Assembly (NCBI GenBank): GCA_026128965.1
Contig: JAHCIY010000002.1
Span: 1,808,468-1,872,467 of the forward strand
Direction of reading: 5' to 3'
Origin: Labilithrix sp.
GTDB taxonomy: Bacteria > Myxococcota_A > Polyangia > Polyangiales > Polyangiaceae
Length of the DNA: 64,000 nucleotides
Shown here one piece after another: positions 41,628-57,717 of this stretch (the stretch's first letter is position 1; every line of letters starts with the position of its first letter). The notes under the pieces were generated by a model, which was not told where the DNA came from, did no database searches, and saw nothing but the letters and a program-made list of their open reading frames with translations. Made by a program: the position numbers and the translations under genes.

Positions 41628-41886
41628 CGGAAGCTTCCCGACGTCGTGGCGCGCAGGAGCCGAGCGCCTGCAGCGTCTGCCGCGCCCGGGTCGCCGGGAT
41701 CGCCTTTGGGCCCGGCGGCGCTGCCCTGTGCTCTCGGTGCTCCGGTGGCTCCGGCCGCACCCGGATCACCAGTATCGCCTTGTCTCCCGCCGGAACGTCG
41801 CGGGGAATGCCTCCGCCGGAGCGCCGTCTGCCGCGCTCGCGCTCGCCGATCGCTCCGCCGCCGAGCCCGGTGGTGGACCCGCCGCC

Positions 41887-41955
41887 GCGGCGAACGACAC
41901 TACGAGCGGCGCTCGGATCCGCGCGCGCTCGGTGCGGAACGGGGATTCGCTCACC
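41887..41955. repeat. dispersed repeat copy 1 (about 70 bp)
   Basis: gcggcgaacgacactacgagcggcgctcggatccgcgcgcgctcggtgcggaacggggattcgctcacc is about 90% identical to 46800-46868, in the same orientation. Confidence 0.7.
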
Positions 41956-42212
41956 GGGTGACCGGTACGCGCCCGCGTCGTCTTCGCCGCGGCGAAGAAG
42001 AAGTACGGGCTTCCGGTCGACCCGATTGCCGACGTCGAGGCGACACTGTCGTCATGTCGAAGGGGCGCCTCGATCGGTGCCCGCGATCTTGGAGATTGAA
42101 AGAGGTCGGATACTCATTGCAGCATGAAACGATGCGCGTGAACTCGGGCGAGTCTCTTGGTAAGGACGTCCATGGGGACGGGGTGCGGAGGCTCGGTCCG
42201 TCGGCCGGGGGC

Positions 42213-42800
42213 ATGAGGCGGGTGTGGTTCGGGTTGGGGCTTCTCTTCTCGCTGTCGTGTGTCGGCTGCGGCTCGAGCGTCCAAGCGTCGGTGCGGTCGG
42301 CGGAGGCCGCTGCGGCGCGTGGGGAGCTTGGGCAGGCGACGATGAGCTACCAGGCCATCTACCGCGGCAAGGGGGCGGACGACCTGAGCGACTCCCAGCG
42401 CGCGACGGCCGAGGACGTGGTGACGAGGTGGGCCGAGGGTCGCGTGTCGTCCGACGCGAAGAGCATCGTAGGAGAGTTTCCGGGGGTGGTGTCTCGAACG
42501 TTCGTTCCTGCGATCGTCGAGCTTGGGATCCGCGCCAAGGACGTGCCGATGCTCGAGGGGCTCTCGCGTGACCTCGGGAGCTCGCATCGCGGGAGCCTCG
42601 AGGATGCGCTCGTCGCGGCGCCGGCGAAGTGGTCCTTCACGAATGAGGTCTCGCTCGAGCTGCGCACGCTCGCGGCCCTGAAGAAAGAGCACAAGGAGCG
42701 GACGGAGCTCGGGGCACTGCTCGCGCGCAGCAGTGCGTCGAGCTCTTCCTCCGACGCGCGTGACGACTACGCGGGTTGCGGGGCGAGCGAGGCCGGGTGA
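42213..42800 (+). CDS. hypothetical lipoprotein
   Basis: MRRVWFGLGLLFSLSCVGC lipobox. The upstream part of ORF 41646-42800 is artefact. Confidence 0.55.
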   Translation: MRRVWFGLGLLFSLSCVGCGSSVQASVRSAEAAAARGELGQATMSYQAIYRGKGADDLSDSQRATAEDVVTRWAEGRVSSDAKSIVGEFPGVVSRTFVPAIVELGIRAKDVPMLEGLSRDLGSSHRGSLEDALVAAPAKWSFTNEVSLELRTLAALKKEHKERTELGALLARSSASSSSSDARDDYAGCGASEAG

Positions 42801-43621
42801 CGATTGCGCCCGTGCAGATCACGACTCCAGCACCAGAGCGCGCGCTCGAGTTCTGCAGCAGGGGTGGCTTGCTCGTCGGGATGGGGAGCTGGCTCCCGCA
42901 GGCGGACGACGAGCCGTGGCGCCGGCAGGCGAAAGACGAGCCCTGGGGCGAGCACGACGAGGTCATCGGCTGTAGTCGCCTCGTCTGTGGCGATTGCAAG
43001 GTACGGGTCAAGACCTTCGACTGCATGTCCTTCAGCGTCGCGGGCCCCCTCGCGCGCGAAGAGCTCCCCGCGATCTACGAGGGCACGCCGCTCTCGCCCC
43101 CGCGCGTCACGTGGGGCACCCGCGATAGGATCTATCTGTGCAAGTGTTCGATCGCCGAGATCGGCGGTGTCAAGGAGGTTGGTTGGCTCGACCACGCGGA
43201 TGGCTGGTGTTGTGGCGGCCACCCGAACGCGCGTCGACACGTACCGGTCGTGTACCCGTCAGCTGAAGTGCTGGCAGCGAAGCTCGCCGCCCCCACGTCG
43301 TCGCTATGGGAACGCCTGAGCGCGTATCGTCATCCTTATTTGCTCCGCATCGGATGGCCCGCAGTGACGCTCCTGCTCGTCCACGCCGACGCTCGCGTGC
43401 GAGAGCGGGCGCTCGCCTTCGTGGAGGCGTGGACGGTCGGATTTCCGGTCACCTCGTCGCGGCTCCTCGATCTAGCCAAGCGTTGCCCACCCCCGTACGA
43501 CGATGACGACGGCCCCGACCGCCTCGCGCTCGCTCGGGTGCTGGCGCTCCAGGCCGCCCGACTCGAGCCGCGACGCGCGGTCATCGAACACGCGCTGCGT
43601 GTGCTCCGAGGCGACGAATGA
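42797..43621 (+). CDS. Cys-rich hypothetical protein
   Basis: A GTG start overlaps the upstream stop; an ATG at 42776 is the alternative. Multiple CxxC-like pairs. Confidence 0.5.
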   Translation: MTIAPVQITTPAPERALEFCSRGGLLVGMGSWLPQADDEPWRRQAKDEPWGEHDEVIGCSRLVCGDCKVRVKTFDCMSFSVAGPLAREELPAIYEGTPLSPPRVTWGTRDRIYLCKCSIAEIGGVKEVGWLDHADGWCCGGHPNARRHVPVVYPSAEVLAAKLAAPTSSLWERLSAYRHPYLLRIGWPAVTLLLVHADARVRERALAFVEAWTVGFPVTSSRLLDLAKRCPPPYDDDDGPDRLALARVLALQAARLEPRRAVIEHALRVLRGDE

Positions 43622-43818
43622 GGTGCGCCGAGGTCTATATGGTCGCGCTCGATCTGGTGCTCCCCGAGGATCCCTCGGTTCGCAACACGGGGAGCGGGCC
43701 CACGCTTCTACGCGTCCGCCGATCCGGCGAGCTCTCCGCTCTTCGACGCGACGCCTCTTGGGATTGCTGCGGCCATGAACGCCCCGACGAAGCAAGCTGC
43801 GGTCACGGGAGACCATGA
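43618..43818 (+). CDS. small Cys-containing ORF, translationally coupled on both sides
   Basis: ATGA overlaps at 43618 and 43815. Confidence 0.3.
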   Translation: MRCAEVYMVALDLVLPEDPSVRNTGSGPTLLRVRRSGELSALRRDASWDCCGHERPDEASCGHGRP

Positions 43819-45017
43819 AGATCCTCAGAGCCAACGGCAAGTTCGGTTTTCAAGACGAGCAGGGCAAGGTCCTCGTCACTCCGAAGTACGACCACGCGGT
43901 GGAGCCACCTGAAGGCGAAGGGCTCGGCATCGTCTGCCTCGGCGGAGGTCTGTGTGACCGGTCGGACAACCACGAACCCACGCGGCTCGAGCACCTCGGC
44001 GGAAAATGGGGCGCCGTCGACGAACGCGGTGACGAGGTGGTTCCGCTCGAGTACGACGAGCTCGGACACGCAGGACATCGCATCCTGATCGCCAATCGAG
44101 GCGCGCGCATCGGGTTGCTCGACGAGCGTGGGACGGTCATCACGCCTATCGAATACTCGTGGATCGCCCCGTTCTCGGAGGGGCTGGCGATGTGCAGGCG
44201 CGCCGAGGGCGAACAGCGGAACGGCTACCTCGACACGACCGGTGCGGTCGCCATCCCCTGCGAGTACGCCGACGCGCTGACCTTCAGCGAAGGTCGTGCG
44301 CTGGTCGCCGACGCGGACTGGAACCACGGCGTCCTCGACCGCGCGGGCCGCGCCATCATTCCCTGCCTCTACGAGAGGCATGTCCTGTTCAAAGACGGAA
44401 TTGCCGTCGTCAAACGTGACGGTAAATACGGTATCGTCGACGAAGTCGGCGCAGAGGTGGTTCCTTGTATCTACGAGGCTATCGGTCAGTTCAGCGAAGC
44501 TCGCGCGGCCTTCAAGCTTGACGGCAAATGGGGTTATCTCAACCACGCTGGCGAGATGGTGATCGCCGCACGGTTCGATGACTACCTCGGCGGCCCTTCT
44601 GCGTTCGACAAGGGGCGCGCCCGCGTGCGCTTGAACGGGCGCGAGCTCTTCATCAACAACAAGGGCGCGGAGCTCAACGCGAAGAAGCCGCCGCGGACGA
44701 GCCTGGAGGTACTGCGACGCTACGGCCAAAGCGATCCGGAGCGGGCGCAACTATTCGACGAGCTCCAGCCTTGGGTGACCGCTCCGCCCTCCGACGAACG
44801 CGATCGGCAGCTCGTCGCCGAGCTGCTCGCGGAGACGACCGCGTGGGTGGCCTCCCACAACTCCTATGGCATGCCCTTCGCGCAGTATTCAATCGGCTGG
44901 CTGCGCGAGAGCCTCGTGAAGCAGTTTCTCACCACCCTCTCGGGCCCCCTCGCCGACCCCCAGAAGGGTCCGCTGCAGCTCCTCTACCGCCTCCACGGAC
45001 TCGGGCGGGCGCAATGA
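43815..45017 (+). CDS. WG-repeat containing protein
   Basis: Repeated GKWG/GKYG...VVP..Y blocks, at least 6 copies, typical of WG beta repeats. Confidence 0.75.
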   Translation: MKILRANGKFGFQDEQGKVLVTPKYDHAVEPPEGEGLGIVCLGGGLCDRSDNHEPTRLEHLGGKWGAVDERGDEVVPLEYDELGHAGHRILIANRGARIGLLDERGTVITPIEYSWIAPFSEGLAMCRRAEGEQRNGYLDTTGAVAIPCEYADALTFSEGRALVADADWNHGVLDRAGRAIIPCLYERHVLFKDGIAVVKRDGKYGIVDEVGAEVVPCIYEAIGQFSEARAAFKLDGKWGYLNHAGEMVIAARFDDYLGGPSAFDKGRARVRLNGRELFINNKGAELNAKKPPRTSLEVLRRYGQSDPERAQLFDELQPWVTAPPSDERDRQLVAELLAETTAWVASHNSYGMPFAQYSIGWLRESLVKQFLTTLSGPLADPQKGPLQLLYRLHGLGRAQ

Positions 45018-45140
45018 AGTGCTCTCACCGCGAAGCATGGGCGCGCGCAGCTTCGGCAACCGTCCTCTCGGCGCATGGGCGACGGTCGTGCTGGACGTAC
45101 GCCTCCGCGTCCTCTCGACGACGAACGTCGTCGCGTCACT

Positions 45141-45344
45141 TCACCATCGCTCCGTCGCATCGCTCGCCTCGGCGACGGCGCGGAGGCGGAGGAGCTTCGC
45201 GATCGCCTGGCCTCGCGCGCCGTCGACCTCGACCTTCTTCGTCTCCGGGCAAAAGAAGACGTGCTCGCCCAGGAGCGTTCGGGCCATCATCGAGCGCGCG
45301 TTCGGCGCCACGACCTCAAGCTGGGTGTCGCCGCCAACGTACAC
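45141..45344 (-). CDS. small hypothetical protein; possibly the frameshifted C-terminal part of a gene of about 110 aa continuing from 45316-45470
   Basis: Protein-like composition (YVGGDTQLEVVAPNARSMMARTLLGEHVFFCPETKKVEVDG). Overlaps by 29 nt an upstream small ORF that is also protein-like. Confidence 0.3.
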   Translation of the reverse strand: MYVGGDTQLEVVAPNARSMMARTLLGEHVFFCPETKKVEVDGARGQAIAKLLRLRAVAEASDATERW

Positions 45345-45593
45345 GACCGTTGGCGAGCATCGCGATGCGGTAGCGGTCCGCGAGCACCATCCCCGCGGTG
45401 GGTACGGGCACCGGCGGCGTCAGGGCCCGCGCCCGTGCTACCTCGAGGTGCTCACGAGGCCGATAGGCCATGTGCGAGCGCGGACAAGGCGCGCTCGCGT
45501 CCACACCTGTTGACGAGCGCGAAGATCCGGAGAAATCGGAGCAAGCCGCAGCAGGACCGACGCGGGAAGGGTCGGTCCTGCTGCGATCGTCGA

Positions 45594-45896
45594 CTACGTC
45601 GCGGCGCGCTCGCCGAGGCGTAGCGCGTGAGCGCGAACGCCGTGAAGGACGGTGGCATGATCGCGACGGAAGAGGCGGCCGATCTCCTCGAAGCTGAAGA
45701 AGCGATCGGCGTGATGGCGGAGAGACCACCAGAGCTCGTGACGAGCGCGCACGATAGCCTTCGTCCGCATGACGCCGCAGACGTCGTCGCGGGTGACGGC
45801 GCGGCGGCGGCAGATGTCGTCGAGGAGCGCGAGGAGGTCGCGTTCCTGCGGCGAGCGGAGCACGAGACCGGACGCGGAGACTCCGCTCGCGATCAT
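45594..45896 (-). CDS. DnaA C-terminal-like HTH domain protein
   Basis: RTKAIVRARHELWWSLRHHADRFFSFEEIGRLFRRDHATVLHGV resembles the DnaA domain IV HTH. Confidence 0.45.
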   Translation of the reverse strand: MIASGVSASGLVLRSPQERDLLALLDDICRRRAVTRDDVCGVMRTKAIVRARHELWWSLRHHADRFFSFEEIGRLFRRDHATVLHGVRAHALRLGERAAT

Positions 45897-45933
45897 CGCC
45901 GCCGCTCCTTCCTTGCCTGCGGTCGCCGAGCGG

Positions 45934-46253
45934 CTAGCCGTCCAGTCCGAGTACATCGAGGAGGGCGCGCCGCACGTCGCCCCAACGCGCCTCCGGCATC
46001 GTTGCGATGAGCGGGCCGAGGTGGGGGCGGTCGACAATCCGAATCCACTCGGGTTTGAGAACGCAGGTCGACGGAAGCCCATCGGGCTGCCGAGGGACAC
46101 CTCCCATGCGAGCCCACGCACCTGACTCGAGATCGGAATGACGGGGATCTGCGCGAGTGATGGCAGCACGTCATCACGGCCGAGCACGAGGACCGGCCGC
46201 CGCTTGTCGGGGAGCGAGAACCGAAACCATCGGATTTGGCCGCGCCGAATCAC
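45934..46253 (-). pseudogene. mazF: MazF/PemK-family toxin with single-nt frameshift
   Basis: N-terminus IRRGQIRWFRFSLPDKRRPVLVLGRDDVLPSLAQIPVIPISSQ matches the PemK fold. After SPMG the reading shifts frame to LPSTCVLKPEWIRIVDRPHLGPLIATMPEARWGDVRRALLDVLGLDG-stop. Span is 320 nt, not a multiple of 3. Confidence 0.65.
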
Positions 46254-46480
46254 GGGAACTCCGGGTCGTCATCCTCGTCCACGATGGGTCCGTCGGGTGA
46301 TCGGACGAGCCACGCGTCCCACGCTGCCTGCAGCATCTTCGGGTCGGCGGACTCATCGACCGTCTCGACGATGAGTCGAACGCGCTGGCCTTCCAGCTCG
46401 GGGACGGGGGCGTCGAGCTCGATCACCGCACCGTGAACGCGCCCGAGTAAAGCTGCCGACATGGATGCAGCGTATCGCAC
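46250..46480 (-). CDS. putative cognate antitoxin
   Basis: 76-aa ORF whose stop overlaps the mazF-like start. Acidic C-terminus. Confidence 0.4.
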   Translation of the reverse strand: MRYAASMSAALLGRVHGAVIELDAPVPELEGQRVRLIVETVDESADPKMLQAAWDAWLVRSPDGPIVDEDDDPEFP

Positions 46481-46799
46481 GAACGACTTCTATTGAATCG
46501 AGCTGGGAACTCGAGAGGTCGGTCGCGGCGAGGCGCTCGCCGCGCCGCCCACCAAACCTGCCTCATCCCTCGCGTCGCGCCTTCGCCTCACGTCGTGCCG
46601 CTCGGCGATCTCCGCGGAGACGATGTCGCCGTGGACCCATTGCGGGTTCGCCCGAGCTTCGGCGATAGCGCGACGCTCTTCGTCGCTCATCGGGCGGTCG
46701 GCCCGCCGCGCGATGTGCATCGCATCGACCTCGCCAAGTGCTCCGTCGGCGAGAACGACCTCGCCATGTGGCGAAACGAGCAGCGCGGCTCCGGCGGCA

Positions 46800-46868
46800 G
46801 CGGCGAACGACATCACGACCGGCGCTCGGATCCGCGCGCGCTCGGTGAGGAACGGGGACTCGCTCACC
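46800..46868. repeat. dispersed repeat copy 2 (about 70 bp)
   Basis: See copy 1 at 41887-41955. Confidence 0.7.
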
Positions 46869-46958
46869 CCATCGAGTGTAGCTCGCCGCCGACCTACCGC
46901 AGAGGGGCCATCGCGCCGCGCGAAAAGTTCGCGCCGCCGCCTCGACGACGAGCGCGCC

Positions 46959-47287
46959 ATGCCATACTTCGATCTTATCGGCATCTCACTCGGCGACGTT
47001 GCGCGCGCCGCATTCGAGGATCTCATGGCCCAGGCAACTACGAGTTCCAGAGCGACTTCTTCAAGAAGCACCTCAAGGAGCACCGCGCCGCGGGCAAGGC
47101 GGACGGCGAAGCGACCGCCGTGCTCACCGTCCTCGACGCGCGCGGCATCGCCGTCTCCGCCGAGCAGAAGGAGCGCATCCTCGGCTGTTCTGACGTGGCG
47201 CTCCTCGACCGCTGGATCCGCAAGGCGGTGATTGTCGCCTCGGCCGAAGAGATTGGAGCTTCTTGCGCCCCGTCTCCTCGTCGCTGA
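46959..47287 (+). pseudogene. fragment of Rpn/YhgA-like (PD-(D/E)XK nuclease family) gene with DUF4351-like C-terminal region
   Basis: ATAVLTVLDARGIAVSAEQKERILGCSDVALLDRWIRKAVIVASAEEI matches the DUF4351 C-terminal pattern (LL..L..RFG.L....RI....D...L..W..R...A.SLEE). There is an internal frame change after EDLMAQ, and no N-terminal nuclease domain is present. Confidence 0.45.
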
Positions 47288-47696
47288 CAAAGCGCTTTGA
47301 GCAATACTCTCACGCCAGGTATTGGTCGCTGTCCGTTCCGTCTCAGAGGCATCCCGGTCTGTGTAGGCGTGTGCACGGCCCGACGGACCATGCTGCATCG
47401 GGTAGGGCTCGATAGGGCTCGATAGCGGCAAATCCACAGCCTGTTCCAATCCCGGTCCCAACGATCCGGTCTTCTTCGACCCCGACGCCGATCAGCCGAC
47501 GCCCGACCCGAACGCATTGGAGGCGGCGGCGGTGGAGGCTGGGGTCCGCCCCGAGATCGCTTTCGCGATTGCGAAGACGGGAGTGATACTCATGGAGGAG
47601 AACCAGCATCTCTACTCGGAGGAGGACAAGGGGGAGTTCTGGGGGGCCGTCGAGGAATATCGCGAGAGAGCGAAGCGACACGACGCGTGAGCCCGA

Positions 47697-48266
47697 TCAA
47701 TCGGGGTTCCGTTCATCTTTCCGAGCCCTTGCCTTCAACTCGTACGCCCGTTCGATGATCGCGGTCATCTCGGGGCCCTTCAAGTACGGTGCTATCCAAC
47801 GAAGCCGTTGATCCTCCCAGCTCGGGTTCGGCTTGCGCCAGTGTCCTCGCACCCAGAAGCGCTTCTCGATCTTATGTCCAGGTCGGCCCGCTGGAAGGGC
47901 GCTTGTATCCGTCGGCGGACCGACGAGGATGCGGTTCGGGAGAAAGAACACGGTCTCGCCAGACAACTCGAGGGGTTTGCCGCGTGGACCGAGCATGCCG
48001 GGTGCGGGCGGTCGTCGAACCTCCGAGGTGAACTCACTCGATGTCGCGTAGAGCACGGCGTTGATCACGAGGTGCAGGAGGTCACGCATCTCCTTGCTGT
48101 CGAAGAACGGATCCTTTGGTCTCTCCGGCTCGTCGGGCTCGGGATGGCTCGCGAGGATCTCATCGAGGTTTCGCTTGCCTTCGAGAGGAACTTCGCGCGT
48201 CACGAGGTACGGCCAATCGCCGTCGAAGGCGTCGGCAAGAAACGCAACCCGGAGCTCACTCGGCAA
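47697..48266 (-). CDS. hypothetical protein; TTG start overlapping upstream stop, or frameshifted continuation of 48256-48582
   Basis: Protein-like sequence (WVRGHWRKPNPSWEDQRLRWIAPYLKGPE). Confidence 0.4.
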   Translation of the reverse strand: MPSELRVAFLADAFDGDWPYLVTREVPLEGKRNLDEILASHPEPDEPERPKDPFFDSKEMRDLLHLVINAVLYATSSEFTSEVRRPPAPGMLGPRGKPLELSGETVFFLPNRILVGPPTDTSALPAGRPGHKIEKRFWVRGHWRKPNPSWEDQRLRWIAPYLKGPEMTAIIERAYELKARARKDERNPD

Positions 48267-48582
48267 GGGTGCAGAGACACTGCACGTTGGCGAGGGCCAG
48301 GTCTCTACTCCAGCCGAAGCCTTGTGTCTCGAGGGCGAAGCGGCCGTCCAACATCGCCACAAACTCTGGATCGGAGCCGATGTCCTGCTCCTCGGCGAGG
48401 ATCGGAACGGCACCAGGAGAGGGGCGCATTCGCTCGATGAGCTTGCGAACGACGTCCGCCCAGGGCGGGGCCACGAGCACCATCGTCTCGTGCGCGAGCC
48501 TTCGCGGATGGGCGGCGATCGCGTCCCGTCGCTTCCGGTCGCGACGCTTCTGCTTCGACGTGCGACTCCGCGACTTCGCCAT
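48256..48582 (-). CDS. hypothetical protein with basic N-terminus
   Basis: MAKSRSRTSKQKRRDRKRRD..., then a protein-like sequence. Confidence 0.4.
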   Translation of the reverse strand: MAKSRSRTSKQKRRDRKRRDAIAAHPRRLAHETMVLVAPPWADVVRKLIERMRPSPGAVPILAEEQDIGSDPEFVAMLDGRFALETQGFGWSRDLALANVQCLCTLAE

Positions 48583-48614
48583 GGCGGTCCGACCTGTCAC
48601 TCTGTCGTGCCCGG

Positions 48615-49455
48615 TCAGGGCGCCCGACGCGTCGCTCTCACAGCCCGTCTCGGCGCCTTCTCCCGGGCTGCGGCCTTGCTCCGTGCGGCCCGTTTTGGCC
48701 AGGGCGGGCATTCCACGTGGAGCGCGGCGTAGACATAGAAGTCCGTGTCGCCACCCTCGTTGCCGAAATAGCCCGTCGCGCTGTATTCGCAGCCGTGGAA
48801 GTGTTGCACAGCCGGCCGATCGGGAACCGGATTGTCGATCTCCTCCGCGCTCATCGGTGCCGGTAGTTGCTCCTCGACCTTGCGTGCCCAGTCGAAGCTG
48901 CGTGGTGCCCCGCGGTGGGTGACGAGGAGCTGCCCGCCGCGGAAGCGGGCGGGCAGGCACACGACGAGCGTCCCGAGCATGTCGTCGCCACGGGGAGTGT
49001 CCTTGTGCGGCTCGAAGTGGCCTCCCTGCGAGTAGACGTTCAGACAGTACAGCTCTGCGGTCAGCGGGTTGGGATCGTGCGGCACGAACTCGCGTCTCAC
49101 GCTCTCGAGCACACCGGATTCAACGGGATCGAAGCCCGCGACCGAGAACGCGCCGCCTTCCGCCTTGAGCTGGCGGGCGTCACGCACGGACCTGCCGAAC
49201 AGCGTTCTCTTGCCCTTTCCGAACGGGGCGGGGGCGCAGCGCTCGACGAGATCCTCGACGGCGGGATCGCGATCGCGTTCTCCGGCTGCGCGGCGAATGG
49301 GGACCTCCAGCCCGTTCTTCAGGTGCAGCGTCACCGCCTTGCTCGGCACCAGGGTGCCACCGCACGCGAACGGCATCGTGACGCCGTGGACGAGATCCGA
49401 GAGCTCGGTCAGGAGCTGGGCTTCGCGTTCATTGCTGGCAGTTTCTCTCGCACGC
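48615..49455 (-). CDS. 2OG-Fe(II) oxygenase superfamily protein
   Basis: YSQGGHFEPHKDTP carries the H-x-D iron-binding motif. LGTLVVCLPARFRGGQLLVTH matches the distal His/Arg region. Confidence 0.65.
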
Positions 49456-49589
49456 ATGGCGCTGGAGACGGCTTCTATCAGTCGCGCGCGTCGTCTCCAA
49501 CGTCCGGCGGTCCACACCACTCGCCACACCAGTCCGGCCCGGCGCCACACCACCGGTCCGACCATCCTGGCGTAACGCTCCGTTACGTC

Positions 49590-49621
49590 CAGAAACGCGA
49601 AAGGCCGCCATCGGCGGCCTT
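49590..49621 (-). terminator. stem-loop immediately 3' of the tRNA-Gly fragment (putative native tRNA terminator)
   Basis: aggccgcc-atcg-ggcggcct is a perfect 8-bp stem, followed on the minus strand by ttcgcgtttct. A second hairpin cgtaacg-gagc-cgttacg lies at 49571-49588. Confidence 0.4.
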
Positions 49622-49625
49622 CGAG

Positions 49626-49676
49626 TGGAGCGGGAGAAGGGATTCGAACCCTCGACGTCCACCTTGGCAAGGTGGC
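49626..49676 (-). tRNA. partial tRNA-Gly(GCC), 3' 51 nt only (anticodon stem to CCA); att-site remnant
   Basis: Minus-strand sequence is GCCACCTTGCCAAGGTGGACGTCGAGGGTTCGAATCCCTTCTCCCGCTCCA. It closely matches the 3' half of E. coli tRNA-Gly GCC (..ACCTTGCCAAGGT..GGTTCGAGTC..TTCCCGCTCCA). The D-arm and 5' acceptor strand are absent. Confidence 0.7.
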
Positions 49677-49974
49677 AGAGGCGGGCGGGATCGCTCGACG
49701 AACATGGGCAAAACGCGCCTCCGGGAGCGCGCGCCACACCAGTCGCCACACCAGTAGCGGTCGGCGAGAGGAAGCGGCCGGAACGGTGTGGGCGGAAGAG
49801 GGAACAGAGCTTCAGTGATGTCGTGGCCTGGCTCGACCGTCACGGACGACCTGCCGAGCATCGTCCGTCGTGGCGTTGCGGCCATGCTGGCGGGAGGGCG
49901 AGCGAGGTCGTCCAAGAGAACGCGGCCTTCCACGCATGGCGGCGCGCCATTCGGCAGCACGCTCGGCGGCGCGC

Positions 49975-50475
49975 TCAGCCCTCGAGCCCGGTCTTCAACT
50001 TCGTCAGCAACCGGAACAGCGTGCGCGCCTCGTGCGGTGTGAGCGCGTTGAAGGTCGCGAGGACGGCGGCGTGGTCGCTTGGGTTGCGTTTGGCCCAGTA
50101 GCGATCGTTCTTCGGTGTCGTTTGGAGTCGGCGAATTCGACCGTCGTTCGGATCGGGCACGATGCGAACGAACCCCTTTCGCTCGAGGGCGAGCGCGATC
50201 TGCTTCACGTTCTGGTGGCTCGTCGCGAGGGCGGTAGCGCACTCGGAGAAGGACGGCCGCCCAAGACCTCGCGCGATCGTGAGTACCGCTGCCTGCTGCG
50301 TCGTCAGGCCATCTGCGGCGAGGAGCTTGTCGGTCATGTTCCGTAGACCGTTCGCGAGGACGATCAGGAGCCGGAACGTCTGGAGCCGTACGATCTTGTC
50401 CTGGCTCAGCGCGTCCACTTCTTCCTCGGAGAACGCGAGGCCCGGCTCCTCGGAGACGGTCGGCTTGCTCGACAT
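49975..50475 (-). CDS. MarR family transcriptional regulator
   Basis: wHTH region LTTQQAAVLTIARGLGRPSFSECATALATSHQNVKQIALALERKGFV. Confidence 0.8.
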   Translation of the reverse strand: MSSKPTVSEEPGLAFSEEEVDALSQDKIVRLQTFRLLIVLANGLRNMTDKLLAADGLTTQQAAVLTIARGLGRPSFSECATALATSHQNVKQIALALERKGFVRIVPDPNDGRIRRLQTTPKNDRYWAKRNPSDHAAVLATFNALTPHEARTLFRLLTKLKTGLEG

Positions 50476-50498
50476 AGGTAATATGTTACATATCTGGC

Positions 50499-51866
50499 AT
50501 GATCTGTCTCGTCCCGAACGCAGCGTTCCTTTCGGAGACCTCGCGCGCGCTTGCCATCTACAAGGCGCTCGTCGTGCGTGGGGCAGAGGCGTGCATCGTG
50601 ACGCACGGTGGGCCATACACGCGTGTGCTCGATGACGAGCGAGTGCCGTATACGGTCCTCGGCCCCGGATGGTCGAACGAGCGGGCACGCGCATTTCTCG
50701 GCGCGATTCCCGGAATCGGGCATCCTCGCGCGCGCCTCTACGAGCGTGAGGAGCTGCGAGCGCTCGTAGAGCTCGAGGCGAAGCTCCTTCGCGAGCGAGC
50801 CGTCCGCTGCGTCGTGACCGGGTTTGCTCTGACCACGCTCCTCTCGACCCGACTCGCCGGCATCCCTCTCGTGACCGATCACGCGGGATCATGGGTCCCC
50901 CCCGTGTGCGAACGGAATCTGTCACCCATCCCACTCCGCTCCACGATCCCCTTTGGCCGATGGCTACCGAGGTCGGTCGCGCTCTGGCTCACGAACTCAG
51001 CCCCATCGCGCGCGAGGCTCTATTGCGGCCAGTTCAACGAGCTTGCGGAGGAGCTCGGCGTTGAAATCGTGCCGAGCTTCGCCGCGCTCCTCCTCGGCGA
51101 TCTCACCCTCGTCACCGATTGTCCAGAGGTGCTCGGTATCTCGGCCGCCGACCTCGAGGCATGGAAGCCTCATCCTTCGCGCTATCGCGCCGGGACGAAG
51201 CTCCGCTACGTCGGTCCGCTGTTCGCGGAACTCTCCGCCCCCGTACCCGAGCGAGTGGAGCAGTTCCTGAATGCCGGAGCCGATCGACCGACGGTCTACG
51301 TCGCGATGACCTCGACGCCGGAGAGCCTGATTCGCGGGGTGGTCCAAGGAGCGAGGGCCGCCGACGTGAGGGTCGTCGTCGCGTCGACGGTGCACGACCT
51401 CGATGATCTCGCGGGAGAGGACGTGATTGTCGAAAAGATTCTCCCGAGCCATCGCATCATGCCGCGCGTGAATCTAGCAATCATCGCGGGAGGGCAGGGG
51501 AGCGTGCAGACGGCGATGGCCGGCGGCACACCCTTCCTCGGCATCCCGCTGCAGCCCGAGCAGGACTTCAACATCGTGGAGATGGAGCGCCATGGTGCGG
51601 CGCGCCGAGTCTCTCAGGAGGACGCGATCTCTCCGCGCATGACGGCGATGGTGAAGGAGGTCCTCGGCGATGCGAGCTTCAAGCTCGCCGCGGAGCGTAT
51701 CCGCGCGATCTACGCGAAGGCCGACGGTCCCGGCGCGGCGGCCGAGGCGATCCTCGAGCTCGTTGGCCATTCGAACCGGGCTCGGACGACGCCGTCCGGC
51801 GCGACGTGGGCGATGACGGCAAAAACCTCCGCAAGCGCGGCGGCCTCGAGCCCTCCGGAAGTGTAG
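50499..51866 (+). CDS. UDP-glycosyltransferase, GT1 family (macrolide-glycosyltransferase-like)
   Basis: C-terminal PSPG-like region HRIMPRVNLAIIAGGQGSVQTAMAGGTPFLGIPLQPEQDFN. Divergent from MarR. Confidence 0.8.
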   Translation: MICLVPNAAFLSETSRALAIYKALVVRGAEACIVTHGGPYTRVLDDERVPYTVLGPGWSNERARAFLGAIPGIGHPRARLYEREELRALVELEAKLLRERAVRCVVTGFALTTLLSTRLAGIPLVTDHAGSWVPPVCERNLSPIPLRSTIPFGRWLPRSVALWLTNSAPSRARLYCGQFNELAEELGVEIVPSFAALLLGDLTLVTDCPEVLGISAADLEAWKPHPSRYRAGTKLRYVGPLFAELSAPVPERVEQFLNAGADRPTVYVAMTSTPESLIRGVVQGARAADVRVVVASTVHDLDDLAGEDVIVEKILPSHRIMPRVNLAIIAGGQGSVQTAMAGGTPFLGIPLQPEQDFNIVEMERHGAARRVSQEDAISPRMTAMVKEVLGDASFKLAAERIRAIYAKADGPGAAAEAILELVGHSNRARTTPSGATWAMTAKTSASAAASSPPEV

Positions 51867-52025
51867 ACTCTGTCCGACTACGCAGCGGCGTGACCATCGC
51901 CCTCGCGCGACGATGACGTCCTCCGCGCGTTCGATCACGAGTCGGCCACGGACCGAAGCGACGAGCTCTCGGACGAGTTCCTCTGATCCCTCGTGGCATC
52001 GCCCTCTTGTCCCGCCGTCCCGGCG

Positions 52026-52325
52026 ATGAATTCCCGCCCGCACCCGTTCGCCGCGAAGCTCTCCCCCGGCCAGGCCGAGGAGGTCCGCCGGCTCCGCGCG
52101 AACGGTGCGCCCCTCGCCGAGATCGCCGGGAGGTTCGGCATCGCCAAGTCCAGCGCGTGCCGAATCACCAAGCTGAAGGCACACGCGCCCGCGGGAACGC
52201 TCCGCGTCGCGCTTCCCGAGTTCGAGTGGGCGCTCCTCGCCGAGCTCGCCGAGGACGGGGAGGTTCCCGCCGAGACGCTCGCCGCTGACCTCTTGGTCGA
52301 GATGCTTCGCAGCCGGGCGTGGTGA
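52026..52325 (+). CDS. small HTH DNA-binding protein
   Basis: AEEVRRLRANGAPLAEIAGRFGIAKSSACRI is a resolvase-type HTH. Confidence 0.5.
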   Translation: MNSRPHPFAAKLSPGQAEEVRRLRANGAPLAEIAGRFGIAKSSACRITKLKAHAPAGTLRVALPEFEWALLAELAEDGEVPAETLAADLLVEMLRSRAW

Positions 52326-52394
52326 CCGCACTTCGGATTCCGTGACGCGCGGTGTCAGTCCGGAGGTCGGGCTCGCTCAAACGTATCAGGGAGG

Positions 52395-53024
52395 ATGGTT
52401 CCCGAACGGTCCGACGGCGACGTGGTCGCCGTCTACGACAGCCTGCTCACGCAGGCCCTCCGCGAGATCCGGTCGCCCGCGACAACGCCGGGCCAGAGGA
52501 TCGCGTGGGCGCGCGTCGCCGAGCACGCCCTGGAGCACCTCCCCGAGACGGAGCAGCGCCTTGCCGAGACGCTGTCGACGGCCCGCAAGGTACTCGACTC
52601 GCCGGAAGCCGTGCAGCGCCTCATCCGCGGCGTCTGGAGCTGCGGCGGCTGCCGTAGCGCCGACGGTACCTGGAAGCGTCTCGTCGACTGGGTGGTCAAC
52701 CTCGCCGACCGGGCCCTCCGTGGCGAGCACTGGGCCACGTTCGCCTGGCTCGCGCACGTCGCCGTGCGGCTCGACGGTGTCGAACCAACGCTCAGTCCGG
52801 AATGGGAGCGAGGCGTCCGAGCCGCCCACGAGATGCCGAACGCGCACGTGCCGCTCCATCTGATCGCGTTCCACTGCGCGAGGAGGCTGGAGCAAGAGAG
52901 CGCGCCGCTGCCTGACTGGTTGCGCCTTCTTCGCTCGGACGAGCGCCTCGCCAACGCGTACAGCACCGACTGTTCGCTGGAGTACGAGATCCAGTGCGCC
53001 GTGTGCAAGCGAGTCGATCCATGA
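52395..53024 (+). CDS. hypothetical protein
   Basis: AGGGAGG Shine-Dalgarno. Protein-like. Confidence 0.55.
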   Translation: MVPERSDGDVVAVYDSLLTQALREIRSPATTPGQRIAWARVAEHALEHLPETEQRLAETLSTARKVLDSPEAVQRLIRGVWSCGGCRSADGTWKRLVDWVVNLADRALRGEHWATFAWLAHVAVRLDGVEPTLSPEWERGVRAAHEMPNAHVPLHLIAFHCARRLEQESAPLPDWLRLLRSDERLANAYSTDCSLEYEIQCAVCKRVDP

Positions 53025-53617
53025 GCGCCCCTGTATCGGCGCGACGCGGGCCGGAGAGCGCGTTCGAGCACCCGGCCTTCGAAAGCCTCTACGCTCGCGT
53101 TCTCCGCGATGTGGCCGACCATCGACTCGACGAGCGGACGCGAAAGGCCGCCGCCAGGGCGCTCGCATTCCTTCTTCGGGAGAACATTGACGAGGCCGTC
53201 GTAACCGACGTCCTCACGGCGGTGCACCGATCACTCGATCTTGCGGCCGTCGTCCGGTCTCTACTCTTGGGGCTCCGCGACGCGCTCGGCGACCACGAGC
53301 GGATCACGGAGTGGACCCGGCGTGCGGCGGACCGCGCCCACGCACAGGGGCACGTCGAGACGTTCGTGTCGGCGGTGCGCGTGTTGATCGGCCTTCGGGA
53401 CTTCGATGGCGCAATGCCTACGAGCTGGCAGCTCGCCATCATCCGCGCGTCCGAGGATCCGAGGTTGCGACGGCGACTGCTCCACATCGCCGACGGGTAC
53501 GCCCGGCGCTTTGGCTCGCACGCCCGTTGGGGCAAGACTGTTCGGGCAGGCTTCATCAGCGGAGCCGTCGCGGACGGGTCAACAGTCGGTCGGGAGGATC
53601 CGTGTACCGCCCCATGA
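53021..53617 (+). CDS. hypothetical protein
   Basis: ATGA-coupled to upstream. Alpha-helical composition. Confidence 0.55.
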   Translation: MSAPVSARRGPESAFEHPAFESLYARVLRDVADHRLDERTRKAAARALAFLLRENIDEAVVTDVLTAVHRSLDLAAVVRSLLLGLRDALGDHERITEWTRRAADRAHAQGHVETFVSAVRVLIGLRDFDGAMPTSWQLAIIRASEDPRLRRRLLHIADGYARRFGSHARWGKTVRAGFISGAVADGSTVGREDPCTAP

Positions 53618-53778
53618 TGTTCCTCGCTTTACTCCTGCTCTACGTCTGCATCACCTGGGACGGAAGCGGATCCGCCGGCCTTCCGTCTGTCTCGCACTCG
53701 CCGAAGGCACCCGCGGGCGTCCCGTCCCCTCCGAGCGCGTCCGAAATGCCGCCGAACGCAAGGACGGGCGCCCCGTAA
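53614..53778 (+). CDS. small secreted/membrane peptide
   Basis: MMFLALLLLYVCITW hydrophobic N-terminus. ATGA-coupled. Confidence 0.35.
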   Translation: MMFLALLLLYVCITWDGSGSAGLPSVSHSPKAPAGVPSPPSASEMPPNARTGAP

Positions 53779-54023
53779 TGACAGCGCCGGCGAGAATCGG
53801 GGCATGTAGGGCTTGTCTGGCCCGACCCAGGCGCCTCGATCCGAGCACCGGGGCGTGTTCCGTGTGCCTCACCCGCCGCGGCCGACGCTGGGTTGCCCTC
53901 TGCGTTCGCGCCCGGGAGGACGAGGCCTTCCGGACTTCGGTGCGCGCCCACCTGGACCCTCCCGCACGAAGGCTATTCGACAAGATGTTCGGCCCGCCTC
54001 GCCTTCGCGAGGTTGGCGAATGA
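53778..54023 (+). CDS. small zinc-ribbon protein
   Basis: CRAC...CSVC is a CxxC-x16-CxxC motif. Confidence 0.45.
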   Translation: MTAPARIGACRACLARPRRLDPSTGACSVCLTRRGRRWVALCVRAREDEAFRTSVRAHLDPPARRLFDKMFGPPRLREVGE

Positions 54024-54310
54024 GGAGGCCGAAGATCCACAAGGCATCGATCGCGGTCGCGTCGGACAGCTCGGTCGTCGCCAACGTCCACGGCTTCGCC
54101 GGCGAGAGGGATTCCGAGGGAATCCTCCGCCGGGCGATCGAGCTCGGCGGCGCCATCTTCATCGGGGTGAAGCTTCGAGGTCGTGAGGCCCGCGACGTGC
54201 TCGCCCGCATCGACGACGCCGGGCACGAGGGCGCCGGCGCGGCGTTCGTCGCCCGCGAGCGGAGGCGGAGAAAGAACACGGCGAAGGATGCGAAGAAGAA
54301 GCGGCGGTGA
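54020..54310 (+). CDS. hypothetical protein, paralogue A
   Basis: IAVASDSSVV...GILRRAIELGGAIFIGVKL...DDAGHEGAGAAFVARERRRRK. Confidence 0.5.
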   Translation: MRRPKIHKASIAVASDSSVVANVHGFAGERDSEGILRRAIELGGAIFIGVKLRGREARDVLARIDDAGHEGAGAAFVARERRRRKNTAKDAKKKRR

Positions 54311-54544
54311 CGGAGACGTCGCTCGCCTCCGCGTACCCGCTTTCATGGACCTCTCGGCACTCCTCCGACACCCGTGCGGCGTCTGCGGTCGGCCGGTCGC
54401 CTGGGGAGCCCGGCGGTGTCCTCGCTGCGGCGCGCGCGGCATGCTCATGACGCACGGTCCGGCGCACGTCGGCCTTCGGCACTGGCTGTTCGCAATTGGC
54501 GTCATCGTCATCCCGTTTATCGCCGCGGTCTGGGCGGCCCGTGG

Positions 54545-54850
54545 CCAGTGAGCCGGGCGCGGAAGAGGGGGCGGCAGACATGGCGTCAGCTCCACCCTTC
54601 ACCGATCGCGGTCGCGCTCGACGGCTCCGTGTTCGCCAGCTTCGGGCTCTACGACGGCGTGGACAACGCCGAGGCCGCGATCCGCACGGCCGCGGAGCAC
54701 GGAGGCCGGGTGTTCGTGGGCGTCGCGCTCGGTGAAGATGACGTGAATGACCTGAGGCAGTGGTTCGACGACGCCGCGTTCGAGGGCCTGGCGTTCGTGC
54801 TTGGCGCAAGGCCGAAGCGGCGACGACGCAAGGCGGGCCCTCGAGAATGA
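54545..54850 (+). CDS. hypothetical protein, paralogue B; non-ATG start inferred
   Basis: IAVALDGSVF...AEAAIRTAAEHGGRVFVGVAL...DDAAFEGLAFVLGARPKRRRRK aligns to paralogue A. Confidence 0.4.
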   Translation, partial: PVSRARKRGRQTWRQLHPSPIAVALDGSVFASFGLYDGVDNAEAAIRTAAEHGGRVFVGVALGEDDVNDLRQWFDDAAFEGLAFVLGARPKRRRRKAGPRE

Positions 54851-54854
54851 ACGT

Positions 54855-55160
54855 CTACCCCTTCTTCCGTGGCCGACCAGGCCGCCGAGGGGCTTCGTCG
54901 CGGGGAGGCTCGAACAGCGCGGCGATCGGCACGCGGAAGGCGTTCGCGAGGTGCGTTAGGGAGTGGATCGTGAGGTTCACGCCGCCCTCGATGCGGGCGA
55001 CGTACTGGAACGTGAAGTTGATGCGCTCGCCGAGCTCGGCCTGCGTCCAGCCGCGCTCCTTCCGGAGCTCGGCGACCCGGCGTCCAACGCCGTCGACGAC
55101 GCGTTCAGGATCGAGCTTCCGCACGCCGGGAAGGTCGCGGAGAGCGTCCTTCCAAAACAT
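54855..55160 (-). CDS. XRE family HTH transcriptional regulator
   Basis: LRKERGWTQAELGERINFTFQYVARIEGGVNLTIHSLTHLANAF. Confidence 0.8.
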   Translation of the reverse strand: MFWKDALRDLPGVRKLDPERVVDGVGRRVAELRKERGWTQAELGERINFTFQYVARIEGGVNLTIHSLTHLANAFRVPIAALFEPPRDEAPRRPGRPRKKG

Positions 55161-55253
55161 AAAGCGATAGTGTTAGTTTCGCACTTTGAGGTGATCCGCA
55201 GGAAGCCGGCTCCCGGTCCGAGCCAAGCGCGGAGCCCGAATTCGGGGGAAGAG

Positions 55254-55799
55254 ATGGACGACTACTCAGATGATCCGGCCATCAAGTCCATGGTGGAGGG
55301 GCACCGTAAGCGACAGCGTCTGATTCTGGGCGCCGCTGGGGCCGGTGCACTGTTGCTCGGGCTCATCCTCTTCGGCATGTCCCAACACGCCGAGGCGACC
55401 CGTAAGGAGGAGGAGCGGCAAGACCGCCTCCGCGTGGAAGCCAAGCAGAAGGTGGAGCGCGATCAGGAGAACGCGCGCAAGAGCGCACCCGTCCTCGACG
55501 TTCCGCAGCTCATCCGGGACGTCAACGACAACCCTGTACAGGCACGGAGCGTCTACACGGGGATCTTCTACGTGACCGGGGAAGCCCAAATCTTGCCGAC
55601 CGGCTTGCTCGTCCAAACGGGGCAGGGTCTCGCTTTCCTGTGCCGCTTGGACACGGGGTCCCTCGCCTCGCTTCACACGGGCGAGATGGTTGGCGTCACC
55701 GGGCGGATCCAGACGGAGCGGGGTCTCGGAGAGGTCGCTCCTCACATCTCGGACTGCCGACTCGAGGCTCACGGTACGACGCGAGACGTCCGACGATAG
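55254..55799 (+). CDS. membrane-anchored hypothetical protein
   Basis: GGGGGAAGAG Shine-Dalgarno. TM helix LILGAAGAGALLLGLILFGM. Confidence 0.6.
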   Translation: MDDYSDDPAIKSMVEGHRKRQRLILGAAGAGALLLGLILFGMSQHAEATRKEEERQDRLRVEAKQKVERDQENARKSAPVLDVPQLIRDVNDNPVQARSVYTGIFYVTGEAQILPTGLLVQTGQGLAFLCRLDTGSLASLHTGEMVGVTGRIQTERGLGEVAPHISDCRLEAHGTTRDVRR

Positions 55800-55929
55800 G
55801 CGTCTCTGGCTTGGGACCGTTCTCGCGTTGATCCGGTCGGCGGGTCTCGGCGCACGGGTCCCTCGGCGAGATCCGTGCATGAACCTTCGCTCCGAAGGAA
55901 GGTTCTACGACAATCCTGTATGCGATTAT

Positions 55930-55942
55930 CCCCCCCCCCCCC
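55930..55942. repeat. homopolymeric C13 tract
   Basis: ccccccccccccc, in a convergent intergenic region. Confidence 0.9.
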
Positions 55943-56089
55943 AAGACACGCCGACCGTCGCGGGGCAGGCCGGACCGCTCACGAGGAGCTCCAGCTGGAC
56001 GTCCGCGACATCGGCGAGGAGGCGTGGGGGCTTGCCCTGTTCTGGCCGATGCTGACGAGCGAACCAAGACGCCGCCGCTCCGGCCCGCG

Positions 56090-56470
56090 TCAGCATCGGC
56101 TGGAGGCATCGGCGCACCTGTCACGCGTGAGCACGTCGAAAACGACGCGTGGCATCGAGACGTCGACCGCCTCGCCGCGATACTCGACGCGCGGGCAATC
56201 CTCCGAGCGGAACACTCCGTGAGGGACGTGGTCGCCCTCGCCACTCCACATCCGGGCCCGATAGTCGACGAGCGAGCCGTCGCTGAGCTCGATCCAGAAG
56301 TGGATCGGGACAACGCGAACGCCGTCGACGAGCAGGTCTCCGGCCTTGGCGACGTGCGGTACGCCCGCCTCCCGCAGGGCGAACGAGAGCACCCTCGTCA
56401 TACCGTCGCATTCGAGGGGAAGGTCGGCGAACGCGTTCAGAAGATTCTGTAGCTGCTCTTGGTCGTGCAT
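56090..56470 (-). CDS. hypothetical protein
   Basis: The C-terminal 126 aa of the 285-aa ORF are protein-like. Upstream part is Arg-rich artefact. Confidence 0.4.
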   Translation of the reverse strand: MHDQEQLQNLLNAFADLPLECDGMTRVLSFALREAGVPHVAKAGDLLVDGVRVVPIHFWIELSDGSLVDYRARMWSGEGDHVPHGVFRSEDCPRVEYRGEAVDVSMPRVVFDVLTRDRCADASSRC

Positions 56471-56857
56471 TTCGGAGCGTACAGCTGCAGCCGGGGCTGC
56501 CGGGCCGCAGGCTCGGACGTCCGTCGCGTACCTCCACTCGTGGTCCGCTCCTACGCCAAGGAGACCTTGCGCCGCGCGACCTCCGTGCTGGGCGATATGC
56601 GCGCCGACGCGGAGGACCGCGAGGACGCGGCGAACGTTATCCGAATCATGCTCCCTCGCGCCCGGCCGACGGAGGCCGATCTCGCCGACGTGATCTCCGC
56701 GCTCGGACGGGCGCTGCACGTCTCGAGCGCGGTCCGGCGCGTGCTGATGTCGATCCGGTCGATGTCGCCGGTGATGACCGCAGTCCACGCAGGTCACGGC
56801 GTCGAGCGCATCATGCCCCGCGTCCACCGCGACGGCGACCACGAAGCCCTCTGCTAG
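56459..56857 (+). CDS. hypothetical protein
   Basis: Moderately protein-like. Strand assignment uncertain. Confidence 0.3.
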   Translation: MVVHFGAYSCSRGCRAAGSDVRRVPPLVVRSYAKETLRRATSVLGDMRADAEDREDAANVIRIMLPRARPTEADLADVISALGRALHVSSAVRRVLMSIRSMSPVMTAVHAGHGVERIMPRVHRDGDHEALC

Positions 56858-57022
56858 CTGCTCCTCGCCACGCTTGACGAGCACAGGTGGCGAGGATGGA
56901 TCCGGGCGGAGTGGGGCAAGGCTGCGTCGGAGTGGGCGGTCAGTCAACTGCCAGACTCGACCTGCCGCGCGGCGCGCCTCATCTCGTCATGGCTCCACGC
57001 GTTTGGGCGTGTCCCTGACTGG

Positions 57023-57304
57023 ATGACCGAGCTCGCCGAGGCGCATCCCGACCTGATCTCGTCGTCGTTCCTGCCGCGCGAGACGCGCTGGCAGCTTCAC
57101 CGCGCGGCGCCTTCAGTGCGCGGCTGGCATCACCTCGCGAGCGAGAACGGCTGGACGCCGATGGTCGCCCCTGCCTTATTCGACCACGAAGCGGACATCG
57201 CCACGACGACCCTTGAGGTCGCAATCGGCGAGAGCACCGACGGGAGCGCGAGGCTCCGGCTCCGCCTGTGGCTCCGCGAGATGACCGGGCAGACCAGCCC
57301 GTGA
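57023..57304 (+). CDS. hypothetical protein
   Basis: Protein-like. Stop overlaps the next start. Confidence 0.4.
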   Translation: MTELAEAHPDLISSSFLPRETRWQLHRAAPSVRGWHHLASENGWTPMVAPALFDHEADIATTTLEVAIGESTDGSARLRLRLWLREMTGQTSP

Positions 57305-57717
57305 TGCCCGTCGACGTCGCCGAGGAGATCGCCGGCACGGTGCTCATCATGTCGCGCCATCGTCTTGGCGCGGTCCTCTTGCTGAATCCGTCGCACGACA
57401 TCACCGGCGGCGTCCTGCTCGACGCCGTCGTGAGCCGGGAGCTTCTCGTCGCGCTCGCCGTCCCGGAGCACGTCAACCGGATCCACTGTGGCGCCGTCAT
57501 CATCCGAGGTGACCGCGTCGAGCGCGCCGGTGTGTCACTCTCGTGGGAGGAGGTCGTGGAGCGCGCCACCGAGCTCGCCGACGGCGTCGCGATCGCGCTC
57601 GACGAGGACACCGGCGAGATCCAAATCGTGGACGGGATGGGGCGCGTCGAGGTCGTGGATGCCGATGACGTCGCAGACGTGCTCCGTCGGCACGCGCGCG
57701 AGGCCGACCTTCGCTGA
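57304..57717 (+). CDS. hypothetical protein
   Basis: ATGA-coupled. Protein-like. Confidence 0.45.
   Translation: MPVDVAEEIAGTVLIMSRHRLGAVLLLNPSHDITGGVLLDAVVSRELLVALAVPEHVNRIHCGAVIIRGDRVERAGVSLSWEEVVERATELADGVAIALDEDTGEIQIVDGMGRVEVVDADDVADVLRRHAREADLR

Follow-up and report, generated by a model that had tools for sequence, protein, structure and literature searches.

A tRNA-Gly(GCC) 3′ half between arm-type repeats: an att-site relic of attP-like layout within a decayed, probably composite island on the Labilithrix chromosome

In the classical lambda-type attP layout, a core is accompanied by clustered short repeats that lie tens to ~150 bp away from it. Among myxophages, Mx9 uses tRNA-Gly, and the attP of Mx8 lies inside int. 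Tyrosine-integrase att sites in tRNA genes are said to fall into sublocation classes, one of them the anticodon loop, a scheme ascribed to Williams 2002. For the integration modules of Mx8 and Mx9, a review (PMC11610982) refers to Tojo 1996 and Julien 2003. Tandem arrays of SGI1 provide documented internal junctions of attP type (PMC2297512), and accretion of ICESt1 and CIME elements is the subject of Pavlovic 2004 and Bellanger 2011, both in the reference list of PMC5812530. The 64-kb stretch of Labilithrix chromosome analyzed here (the window, comprising the full 64,000 nucleotides) contains a real att relic of a known kind, situated in a decayed composite island. Coordinates of all window features are collected in Table 1.

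Table 1. Features of the window discussed in the text, ordered by position
Feature	Position	Strand	Description
Vault-protein-like gene	30756-33248	+	830 aa
GAF-GGDEF gene	38459-40087	+	At the GC shift
Low-GC accessory region	39000..64000	.	GC about 0.60-0.69, against 0.70-0.75 to the left
Uracil-DNA-glycosylase gene	39988-40674	-	Convergent with the GAF-GGDEF gene
ArsR-family and SRPBCC/AHSA1 pair	40747-41627	+	
Weakly AcrVA2-like gene	47697-48266	-	189 aa
P0001, decayed gene	48615..49457	-	280 aa; located where the family's integrase would sit
P′-arm-type repeats	49510..49554	-	Three direct (C/G)TGGTGTGG(CG), spacing 21 / 12 nt
Hairpin 2	49567..49592	-	CTGG-A-CGTAACG gag CGTTACG-CCAG, from the fold result
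Hairpin 1	49601..49621	-	9-bp stem, 3-nt loop, then TCGCGTTTCTGG
tRNA-Gly(GCC) 3′ half	49626..49677	-	52 nt; two bases, anticodon stem-loop, variable loop, T arm, 3′ acceptor strand, CCA
Putative recombination core	49659..49675	-	CCACC / TTGCCAA / GGTGG, read from the sequence
P-arm-type repeats	49732..49754	-	Two exact tandem CTGGTGTGGCG with a start-to-start distance of 12 nt, lying 55-77 nt before the fragment
Inverted copy of repeat core	49785..49791	+	GGTGTGG on the plus strand, farther out on the P side
Strong hairpin	49837-49882	+	Between the MarR gene and the P-arm-type repeats
MarR-family regulator gene	49975..50475	-	First gene on the P side
Serine recombinase	58393-59103	+	236 aa
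IS256/Mutator-family insertion sequence	62881..64000	+	Pfam PF00872, E 3e-38

The tRNA-Gly fragment and the repeats around it

On the minus strand, the sequence from 49677 to 49626 reads TG-CCACC-TTGCCAA-GGTGG-ACGTC-GAGGG-TTCGAAT-CCCTT-CTCCCGC-T-CCA, in which two bases before the anticodon stem, the stem-loop CCACC-TTGCCAA-GGTGG, the T arm and CTCCCGCTCCA can be recognized. It corresponds to positions 24-75 of an intact Polyangiaceae tRNA-Gly(GCC) gene at 52/52 nucleotides (blastn E 2.7e-25). A scan with a 50-mer of the fragment against a collection holding one genome per species, the window's own genome lying outside this collection, returned 22 loci, the majority in MAGs of Polyangiaceae or Myxococcales. 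Each locus is an intact tRNA-Gly(GCC) gene, composed of GCGGGAGTAACTCAGTGGTAGAGTG followed by the 50-mer, and each of the 22 is identical to the fragment over 52 nt. The 5′ half is absent from the window locus, the sequence upstream of the fragment (...cccgcccgcctc) being unlike the D arm and acceptor strand of the intact genes (GCGGGAGTAACTCAGTGGTAGAG). ARAGORN detects zero tRNA genes in the 64-kb window, and Rfam reports nothing there at gathering score; with the threshold set permissively, the Rfam tRNA model gives the fragment 20.5 bits against a cut-off of 29, with the 5′ side unpaired. The fragment is not a functional tRNA gene, and it has no second copy in the 64-kb window, other matches being 12-nt chance ones only. 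The sequence-only reading had described a piece of tRNA-Gly running from the anticodon stem through CCA, devoid of D-arm and 5′ acceptor strand, and in this it is confirmed, its length having to be corrected from 51 to 52 nt; renewed inspection by ARAGORN, Rfam and alignment to the intact genes yielded no full tRNA at the site.

In the putative core, the 7-nt anticodon loop is enclosed by an inverted repeat of 5 bp. The tRNA homology of the fragment ends exactly at the base of the anticodon stem, and the identity segment, as at tyrosine-integrase att sites, covers the presumed crossover region and stops at a structural boundary. Crossover would accordingly be placed in the anticodon loop, for which a fragment starting at the anticodon stem is what one expects.

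Two hairpins follow CCA. Hairpin 1, AAGGCCGCC gat GGCGGCCTT, starts 4 nt past CCA, and together with hairpin 2 it folds at -36.2 kcal/mol (z = -3.9). The same earlier reading had reported an 8-bp hairpin immediately after CCA, followed by a T-rich stretch, and had taken the two for a terminator. The hairpin is real and strong, with a stem one base pair longer than reported and a second hairpin behind it; the T-rich stretch is weak (TCGCGTTTCT), and a consensus terminator scan made no call at hairpin 1 and this tail. In one of the 22 intact loci (L007) the tRNA is followed by a homologous hairpin 1 with compensatory changes and by part of hairpin 2, up to a 100-N scaffold gap in that contig, and about 50 nt of the hairpin region downstream of the tRNA are common to L007 and the window. 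This common stretch could be a native chromosomal terminator, which would favor attR for that stretch, and could equally be the P′ arm of an element, because such a hairpin is carried by the elements exemplified by locus L148 (see below). Unoccupied tRNA-Gly loci likewise have a hairpin directly after CCA.

A single motif, CTGGTGTGGCG, is found on both flanks of the fragment: upstream it occurs twice in direct and once in inverted orientation, downstream three times in direct orientation. Counted in tRNA orientation from the base after CCA, these are located at -165 (inverted), at -126 and -114, and at +75, +96 and +108. Of the 9-mer GGTGTGGCG the 64 kb contain five copies against 0.7 expected, four of the five flanking the fragment, and 6 of the 10 occurrences of the 7-mer core GGTGTGG/CCACACC in 64 kb are confined to the 280 bp between 49512 and 49791. 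When 5000 pieces of 220 nt were drawn at random from the window, only 67 (about 1.3%) contained a triple with 21/12 spacing. Because the motif occurs upstream as well as downstream, the whole site, 49510-49791, looks like P-core-P′, that is, an attP-like layout, with the repeats as putative arm-type binding sites of an integrase. Locus L148 has no clear P-arm repeats, and the P-arm reading comes from the window locus alone. The upstream repeats sit downstream of the MarR gene. The strong hairpin found between this gene and the P-arm-type repeats matches the CRISPR-DR20 model at 21 bits (E 0.09) and is most likely the terminator-like stem of the MarR gene, not a CRISPR repeat.

Related loci and their integrases

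A tyrosine integrase is encoded directly downstream of the tRNA in four of the 22 intact loci (L019, L002, L022 and L023), always in the order intact tRNA, short direct repeats, convergent tyrosine-recombinase gene. In the related Polyangiaceae genomes, tRNA-Gly(GCC) is thus an integration hot spot. The integrases of the L019 family are divergent, PF00589 aligning over the whole catalytic domain at only 19-27 bits, and the phage collection contains no relative of them. The conserved upstream neighbor of tRNA-Gly in the relatives is a MEMO/AmmeMemoRadiSam-B gene; between the window and the chromosomal neighbors of any of the 22 tRNA-Gly loci we found no synteny.

A metagenome scan returned a further locus, L148, which is a metagenome contig with a 3′-half-only copy of tRNA-Gly and without intact tRNA. 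Here the tRNA half is followed by a hairpin and TTTCTGG, then by three direct repeats and lastly by the 3′ end of an integrase gene, the product of which belongs to the same family as that of L019 (E 5.5e-59) and the reading frame of which crosses the P′ repeats. Identity to the tRNA starts at the anticodon loop in this attP-like site. Since L148 has the tRNA 3′ half alone, elements of this kind carry that half in their own att site.

As can be seen from the positions after CCA, the repeats of the window (+75 / +96 / +108, core GGTGTGG), of L148 (+83 / +104 / +116, core GCACAGG), of L002 (+57 / +78 / +90, core TCCTCCC) and of L022 (+27 / +48 / +60, core CCTCCCCAC) have the 21/12 spacing in common and differ in sequence. 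The arm-type repeats around the window core thereby share their geometry with three integrase-linked sites, in each of which an L019-family integrase comes immediately after the 21/12 repeats. The pattern is present in 0/18 of the other tRNA-Gly loci with readable post-tRNA sequence (this sequence being hidden by the scaffold gap in L007). Every integrase-bearing locus is ordered tRNA 3′ half, P′ repeats, integrase and element body. In L002, a Polyangiaceae MAG, the integrase beside the intact tRNA-Gly comprises only the C-terminal 164 aa (4555-5046), and an inverted 34-nt tRNA-Gly piece, extending from anticodon loop to T loop, lies at 4513-4546, exactly where the integrase similarity begins; this piece may be a second recombination scar or may stem from an inversion between att sites.

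No cognate integrase gene adjoins the window site. Neither an integrase nor a remnant of one was detected by tblastn and the family HMM over all six frames of the window (best E 0.33), and Pfam searches on all genes called between 38.6 and 62.9 kb revealed no integrase. The 64-kb window likewise lacks a partner att site, which would be recognizable as a directly repeated core, and an intact target tRNA, and the 14.3 kb upstream of the fragment inside the window contain neither intact tRNA nor integrase. A prophage origin was considered and dropped, as no informative PHROGs match and no phage megablast match were obtained: in a PHROGs scan of 20 flank proteins, 19 had no match and the other fell into a family without assigned function, and no deposited phage matched the window in megablast. 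Viral scans returned 0 matches with the 50-mer, matches only in low-GC jumbo-phage tRNA arrays with a 25-mer, and 120+ matches, which is chance level, with the repeat pattern.

Flanking DNA and neighboring genes

The left 39 kb of the window carry ordinary-looking myxobacterial genes, and the low-GC region beyond spans both sides of the site and consists mainly of ORFans, among them decayed mobile and toxin-antitoxin (TA) genes. Situated in the ordinary chromosomal part is a gene for a bacterial vault-protein-like product, in which the 'shoulder' domain of the Major Vault Protein is recognized (PF11978, E 2e-25). Where GC drops on the left, at 39-40 kb, there is no att-like sequence and no second decayed tRNA piece. 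The 3′ end of the GAF-GGDEF gene overlaps the convergent uracil-DNA-glycosylase gene by ~100 nt, and its tail resembles out-of-frame read-through; this gene may have been clipped where the accessory region begins. Between 39 kb and the fragment we find the uracil-DNA glycosylase, the ArsR/SRPBCC pair, a WG-repeat protein, a PemK-like fragment, a DnaA-C HTH fragment, several ORFans and P0001. The ArsR/SRPBCC pair has ~78% nucleotide identity to Pararhizobium, Rhizobium and Mesorhizobium plasmids, a value out of the ordinary for a myxobacterium, which suggests that the pair was transferred recently between phyla. The weak AcrVA2-like match listed in Table 1 concerns a protein that also hits phrog_15934 (E 1e-9), a family of unknown function. 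To the right of the fragment follow the MarR regulator, a GT1 glycosyltransferase, small HTH proteins and many ORFans, and further on a serine-recombinase fragment and an IS element. This recombinase has a full Resolvase domain and only the first half of the 'Recombinase' domain, and looks like a truncated large serine recombinase, that is, a second, unrelated mobile-element remnant. The two flanks have no genes in common, backbone genes included, and the proposal that they are two copies of one element in tandem was for this reason dropped as stated.

P0001 keeps both ends of a ~470-aa family and has lost ~190 internal residues by deletion; the family gives a weak 2OG-Fe(II)-oxygenase signal. 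The protein is 100% identical to one from a Labilithrix sp. MAG (KIT84_20130; MBX3232016.1, MCW5813348.1), and the gene starts 55 nt past the last repeat. Its closest relative is on a metagenome contig (L027, ~80% nucleotide identity), which keeps the upstream region of the gene including one repeat copy and has no tRNA piece, the window having one extra 12-nt unit. The junction between P′ arm and gene predates the split between window and L027. In the vicinity of more distant full-length homologs there are neither such repeats nor a tRNA or an integrase, and because of this absence we do not regard the repeats as regulatory elements of the P0001 family and dropped a reading in which they are operators of the downstream gene family. 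The family is widespread and uncharacterized, with homologs (P0002-P0120) in Myxococcota, Acidobacteriota and Latescibacterota; in Byssovorax (L151) a homolog is located among genes for an MqsA-like HTH protein, a WYL regulator and an AAA_15 ATPase, a neighborhood that resembles a defense island.

At the right end of the window, the IS256-family transposase begins near 62968 and is incomplete, its remainder lying outside the window. The stretch 52039..62880 is identical to the end of contig JAHBWE010000017.1 (GCA_019637155.1), which stops at 62880, the exact start of the IS256-family element. Concern that the window might be an artifact of joined contigs was put aside, since a Logan read assembly contig crosses the IS junction at 100% identity and the window thus represents one real molecule. 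Relatives of the transposase are many, at 85-94% identity on ~1.4 kb contigs (Logan, ENA, JGI), which suggests an active multicopy IS that fragments assemblies.

Origin of the site and comparison with known systems

That the fragment is a remnant of site-specific integration into tRNA-Gly(GCC), as the sequence-only reading held, is supported by its start at the anticodon stem, by the integrases beside four of the 22 intact loci and by the 3′-half copy in L148. Two further proposals of that reading are not supported. It took the fragment for the displaced original 3′ end at a clean island boundary, against which stand the 21/12 P′ repeats downstream, the recurrence of the motif upstream and the low GC on both sides; and it placed the inserted DNA only at higher coordinates, whereas the P′-arm layout puts an element at lower coordinates and both flanks are accessory or decayed. 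Because the downstream 21/12 repeats are the P′-arm signature of integrase-linked loci, the fragment is most likely an element-borne copy joined to a P′ arm and not a displaced chromosomal end. The attached element would then lie at lower coordinates, from 49.5 kb down toward about 40 kb, since integrase-bearing loci run from tRNA half through P′ repeats and integrase to the element; the low GC below 49.5 kb fits this placement.

On balance we consider it probable that the locus (~49510-49791) is an orphan, attP-like internal att site of a composite or tandem island that has lost its integrase. According to this proposal, a family of elements would integrate into the anticodon loop of tRNA-Gly(GCC) in Polyangiaceae, Labilithrix included, by means of a divergent tyrosine integrase. 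Each element would carry its own tRNA 3′ half and hairpin, so that the tRNA would be restored after integration, and the integrase would recognize the short repeats on both sides as its arm-type sites. At the window site, the presumed element-borne half adjoins a second set of repeats in place of a chromosomal 5′ half, a configuration that one would predict where two elements are stacked at a single tRNA, at their internal junction, or else for an attP that has not recombined. Such an attP-like internal junction could have arisen when a second element entered the att site of a resident one, that is, by tandem integration or accretion. Later decay would have removed the integrase that followed the P′ arm and left a decayed cargo gene (P0001) in place, and an IS256-family element would have inserted 13 kb away. 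Counting against this proposal are the lack of an integrase, a second att copy and an intact tRNA in the window, as well as the one repeat that L027 shares together with the gene, which indicates that part of the P′ block travels with the gene; accretion in particular is disfavored by flanks without common backbone genes and by the want of anything att-like near the 39-40 kb GC shift.

An unlikely alternative that nonetheless accounts for part of the data is a damaged attL, in which a normal integration originally produced intact tRNA, P′ arm, integrase and element at lower coordinates, and a later deletion or insertion destroyed the tRNA 5′ half and the integrase, leaving a pseudo-tRNA. The P′ signature downstream of the fragment, the missing integrase, the decayed neighboring genes and the IS activity nearby would all agree with such a history, which however leaves the two exact CTGGTGTGGCG copies and the inverted copy upstream, at arm-like distances, unexplained; moreover, the tRNA homology stops where an att identity segment ends, at the anticodon stem base, and not at a random breakpoint.

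Still more doubtful is a simple attR, in which the original tRNA-Gly 3′ end and its native terminator were displaced by one element at higher coordinates, and which puts the intact tRNA and the integrase beyond the window end. For a displaced 3′ end the argument from orientation is sound, P-type repeats are indeed present upstream, on the side assigned to the element, and the right flank is accessory, with its recombinase fragment and IS element. The homologous hairpin region with compensatory changes behind the intact tRNA of L007, and the hairpins right after CCA in unoccupied tRNA-Gly loci, also speak for this model. Against this, the elements exemplified by L148 themselves carry a hairpin and TTTCTGG after the tRNA half, and the same repeat occurs downstream three times in the 21/12 arrangement that is found elsewhere only between tRNA and integrase. 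Low GC and accessory or decayed genes continue for 10 kb more on the supposedly chromosomal side, where synteny with the chromosomal neighbors of tRNA-Gly in relatives is lacking, and the 14.3 kb on the other side are free of integrase and tRNA.

Unless the genome encodes a matching integrase at some other place, the orphan internal att site is very probably no longer active. There is a slim chance that the site is still live, with an integrase from elsewhere excising or mobilizing the integrase-less segment in cis in the manner of a CIME, and with arm geometry and repeats serving as a specificity code. If so, an intact occupied tRNA-Gly locus would be an example of a source of the integrase acting on the internal att site, the fixed 21/12 geometry and the element-specific repeats (GGTGTGG, GCACAGG, TCCTCCC, CCTCCCCAC) would form this code, and several elements could share one tRNA without cross-excision. 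Finally, that the locus is no att site at all and arose by chance or for regulatory reasons, for instance as operator repeats beside a stray tRNA pseudogene or a tRNA-derived repeat, would suit the single repeat kept by L027 upstream of the homologous gene without a tRNA piece and the lack of an integrase-family recombinase in the window, and is highly improbable given repeats on both sides, also downstream of the MarR gene, more distant gene homologs without repeats, a geometry in agreement with integrase-linked loci, and a fragment that is single-copy in the window and hence not a dispersed repeat.

For annotation, the value of the site is that it marks a composite, decaying genomic island in the Labilithrix chromosome, and that finding a tRNA 3′ half does not by itself establish where an island ends, the side on which the element lies being indicated by the arm repeats. 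The tRNA-Gly(GCC) 3′ end followed by three direct repeats at 21/12 nt is a signature of a poorly described, divergent tyrosine-integrase family and could help to delimit islands in myxobacterial genomes and MAGs. As a type, the locus is an ordinary relic that will not surprise specialists in mobile elements.

Compared with lambda-type att sites in tRNA genes, the window differs in having no integrase and no partner site, and the linked integrase family stands apart by its divergence (PF00589 at 19-27 bits) and by having no relative among deposited phages. As in those sites, the element carries the 3′ portion of the tRNA, beginning with the anticodon stem and ending with CCA; in the putative core, a 7-nt overlap is bracketed by a short inverted repeat, arm-type repeats are clustered on both sides at tens to ~150 bp from the core, and in the related loci the integrase adjoins the P′ arm. 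With SGI1 tandem arrays and ICESt1/CIME accretion the locus shares an att site that has element DNA on both sides, a composite island and a single hot spot, and, as in a CIME, one part of the island is without an integrase of its own; it differs in that the flanks share no backbone genes, that the outer junctions and an active partner are not seen in the window, and that the host is a myxobacterium and the target tRNA-Gly(GCC). In comparison with Mx8 and Mx9, the L019-family integrases have no detectable similarity to the phage collection and neither window flank has phage genes, whereas the arrangement itself is alike: myxobacterial elements at tRNA genes, with a tyrosine integrase next to or overlapping attP, as the reading frame in L148 illustrates.
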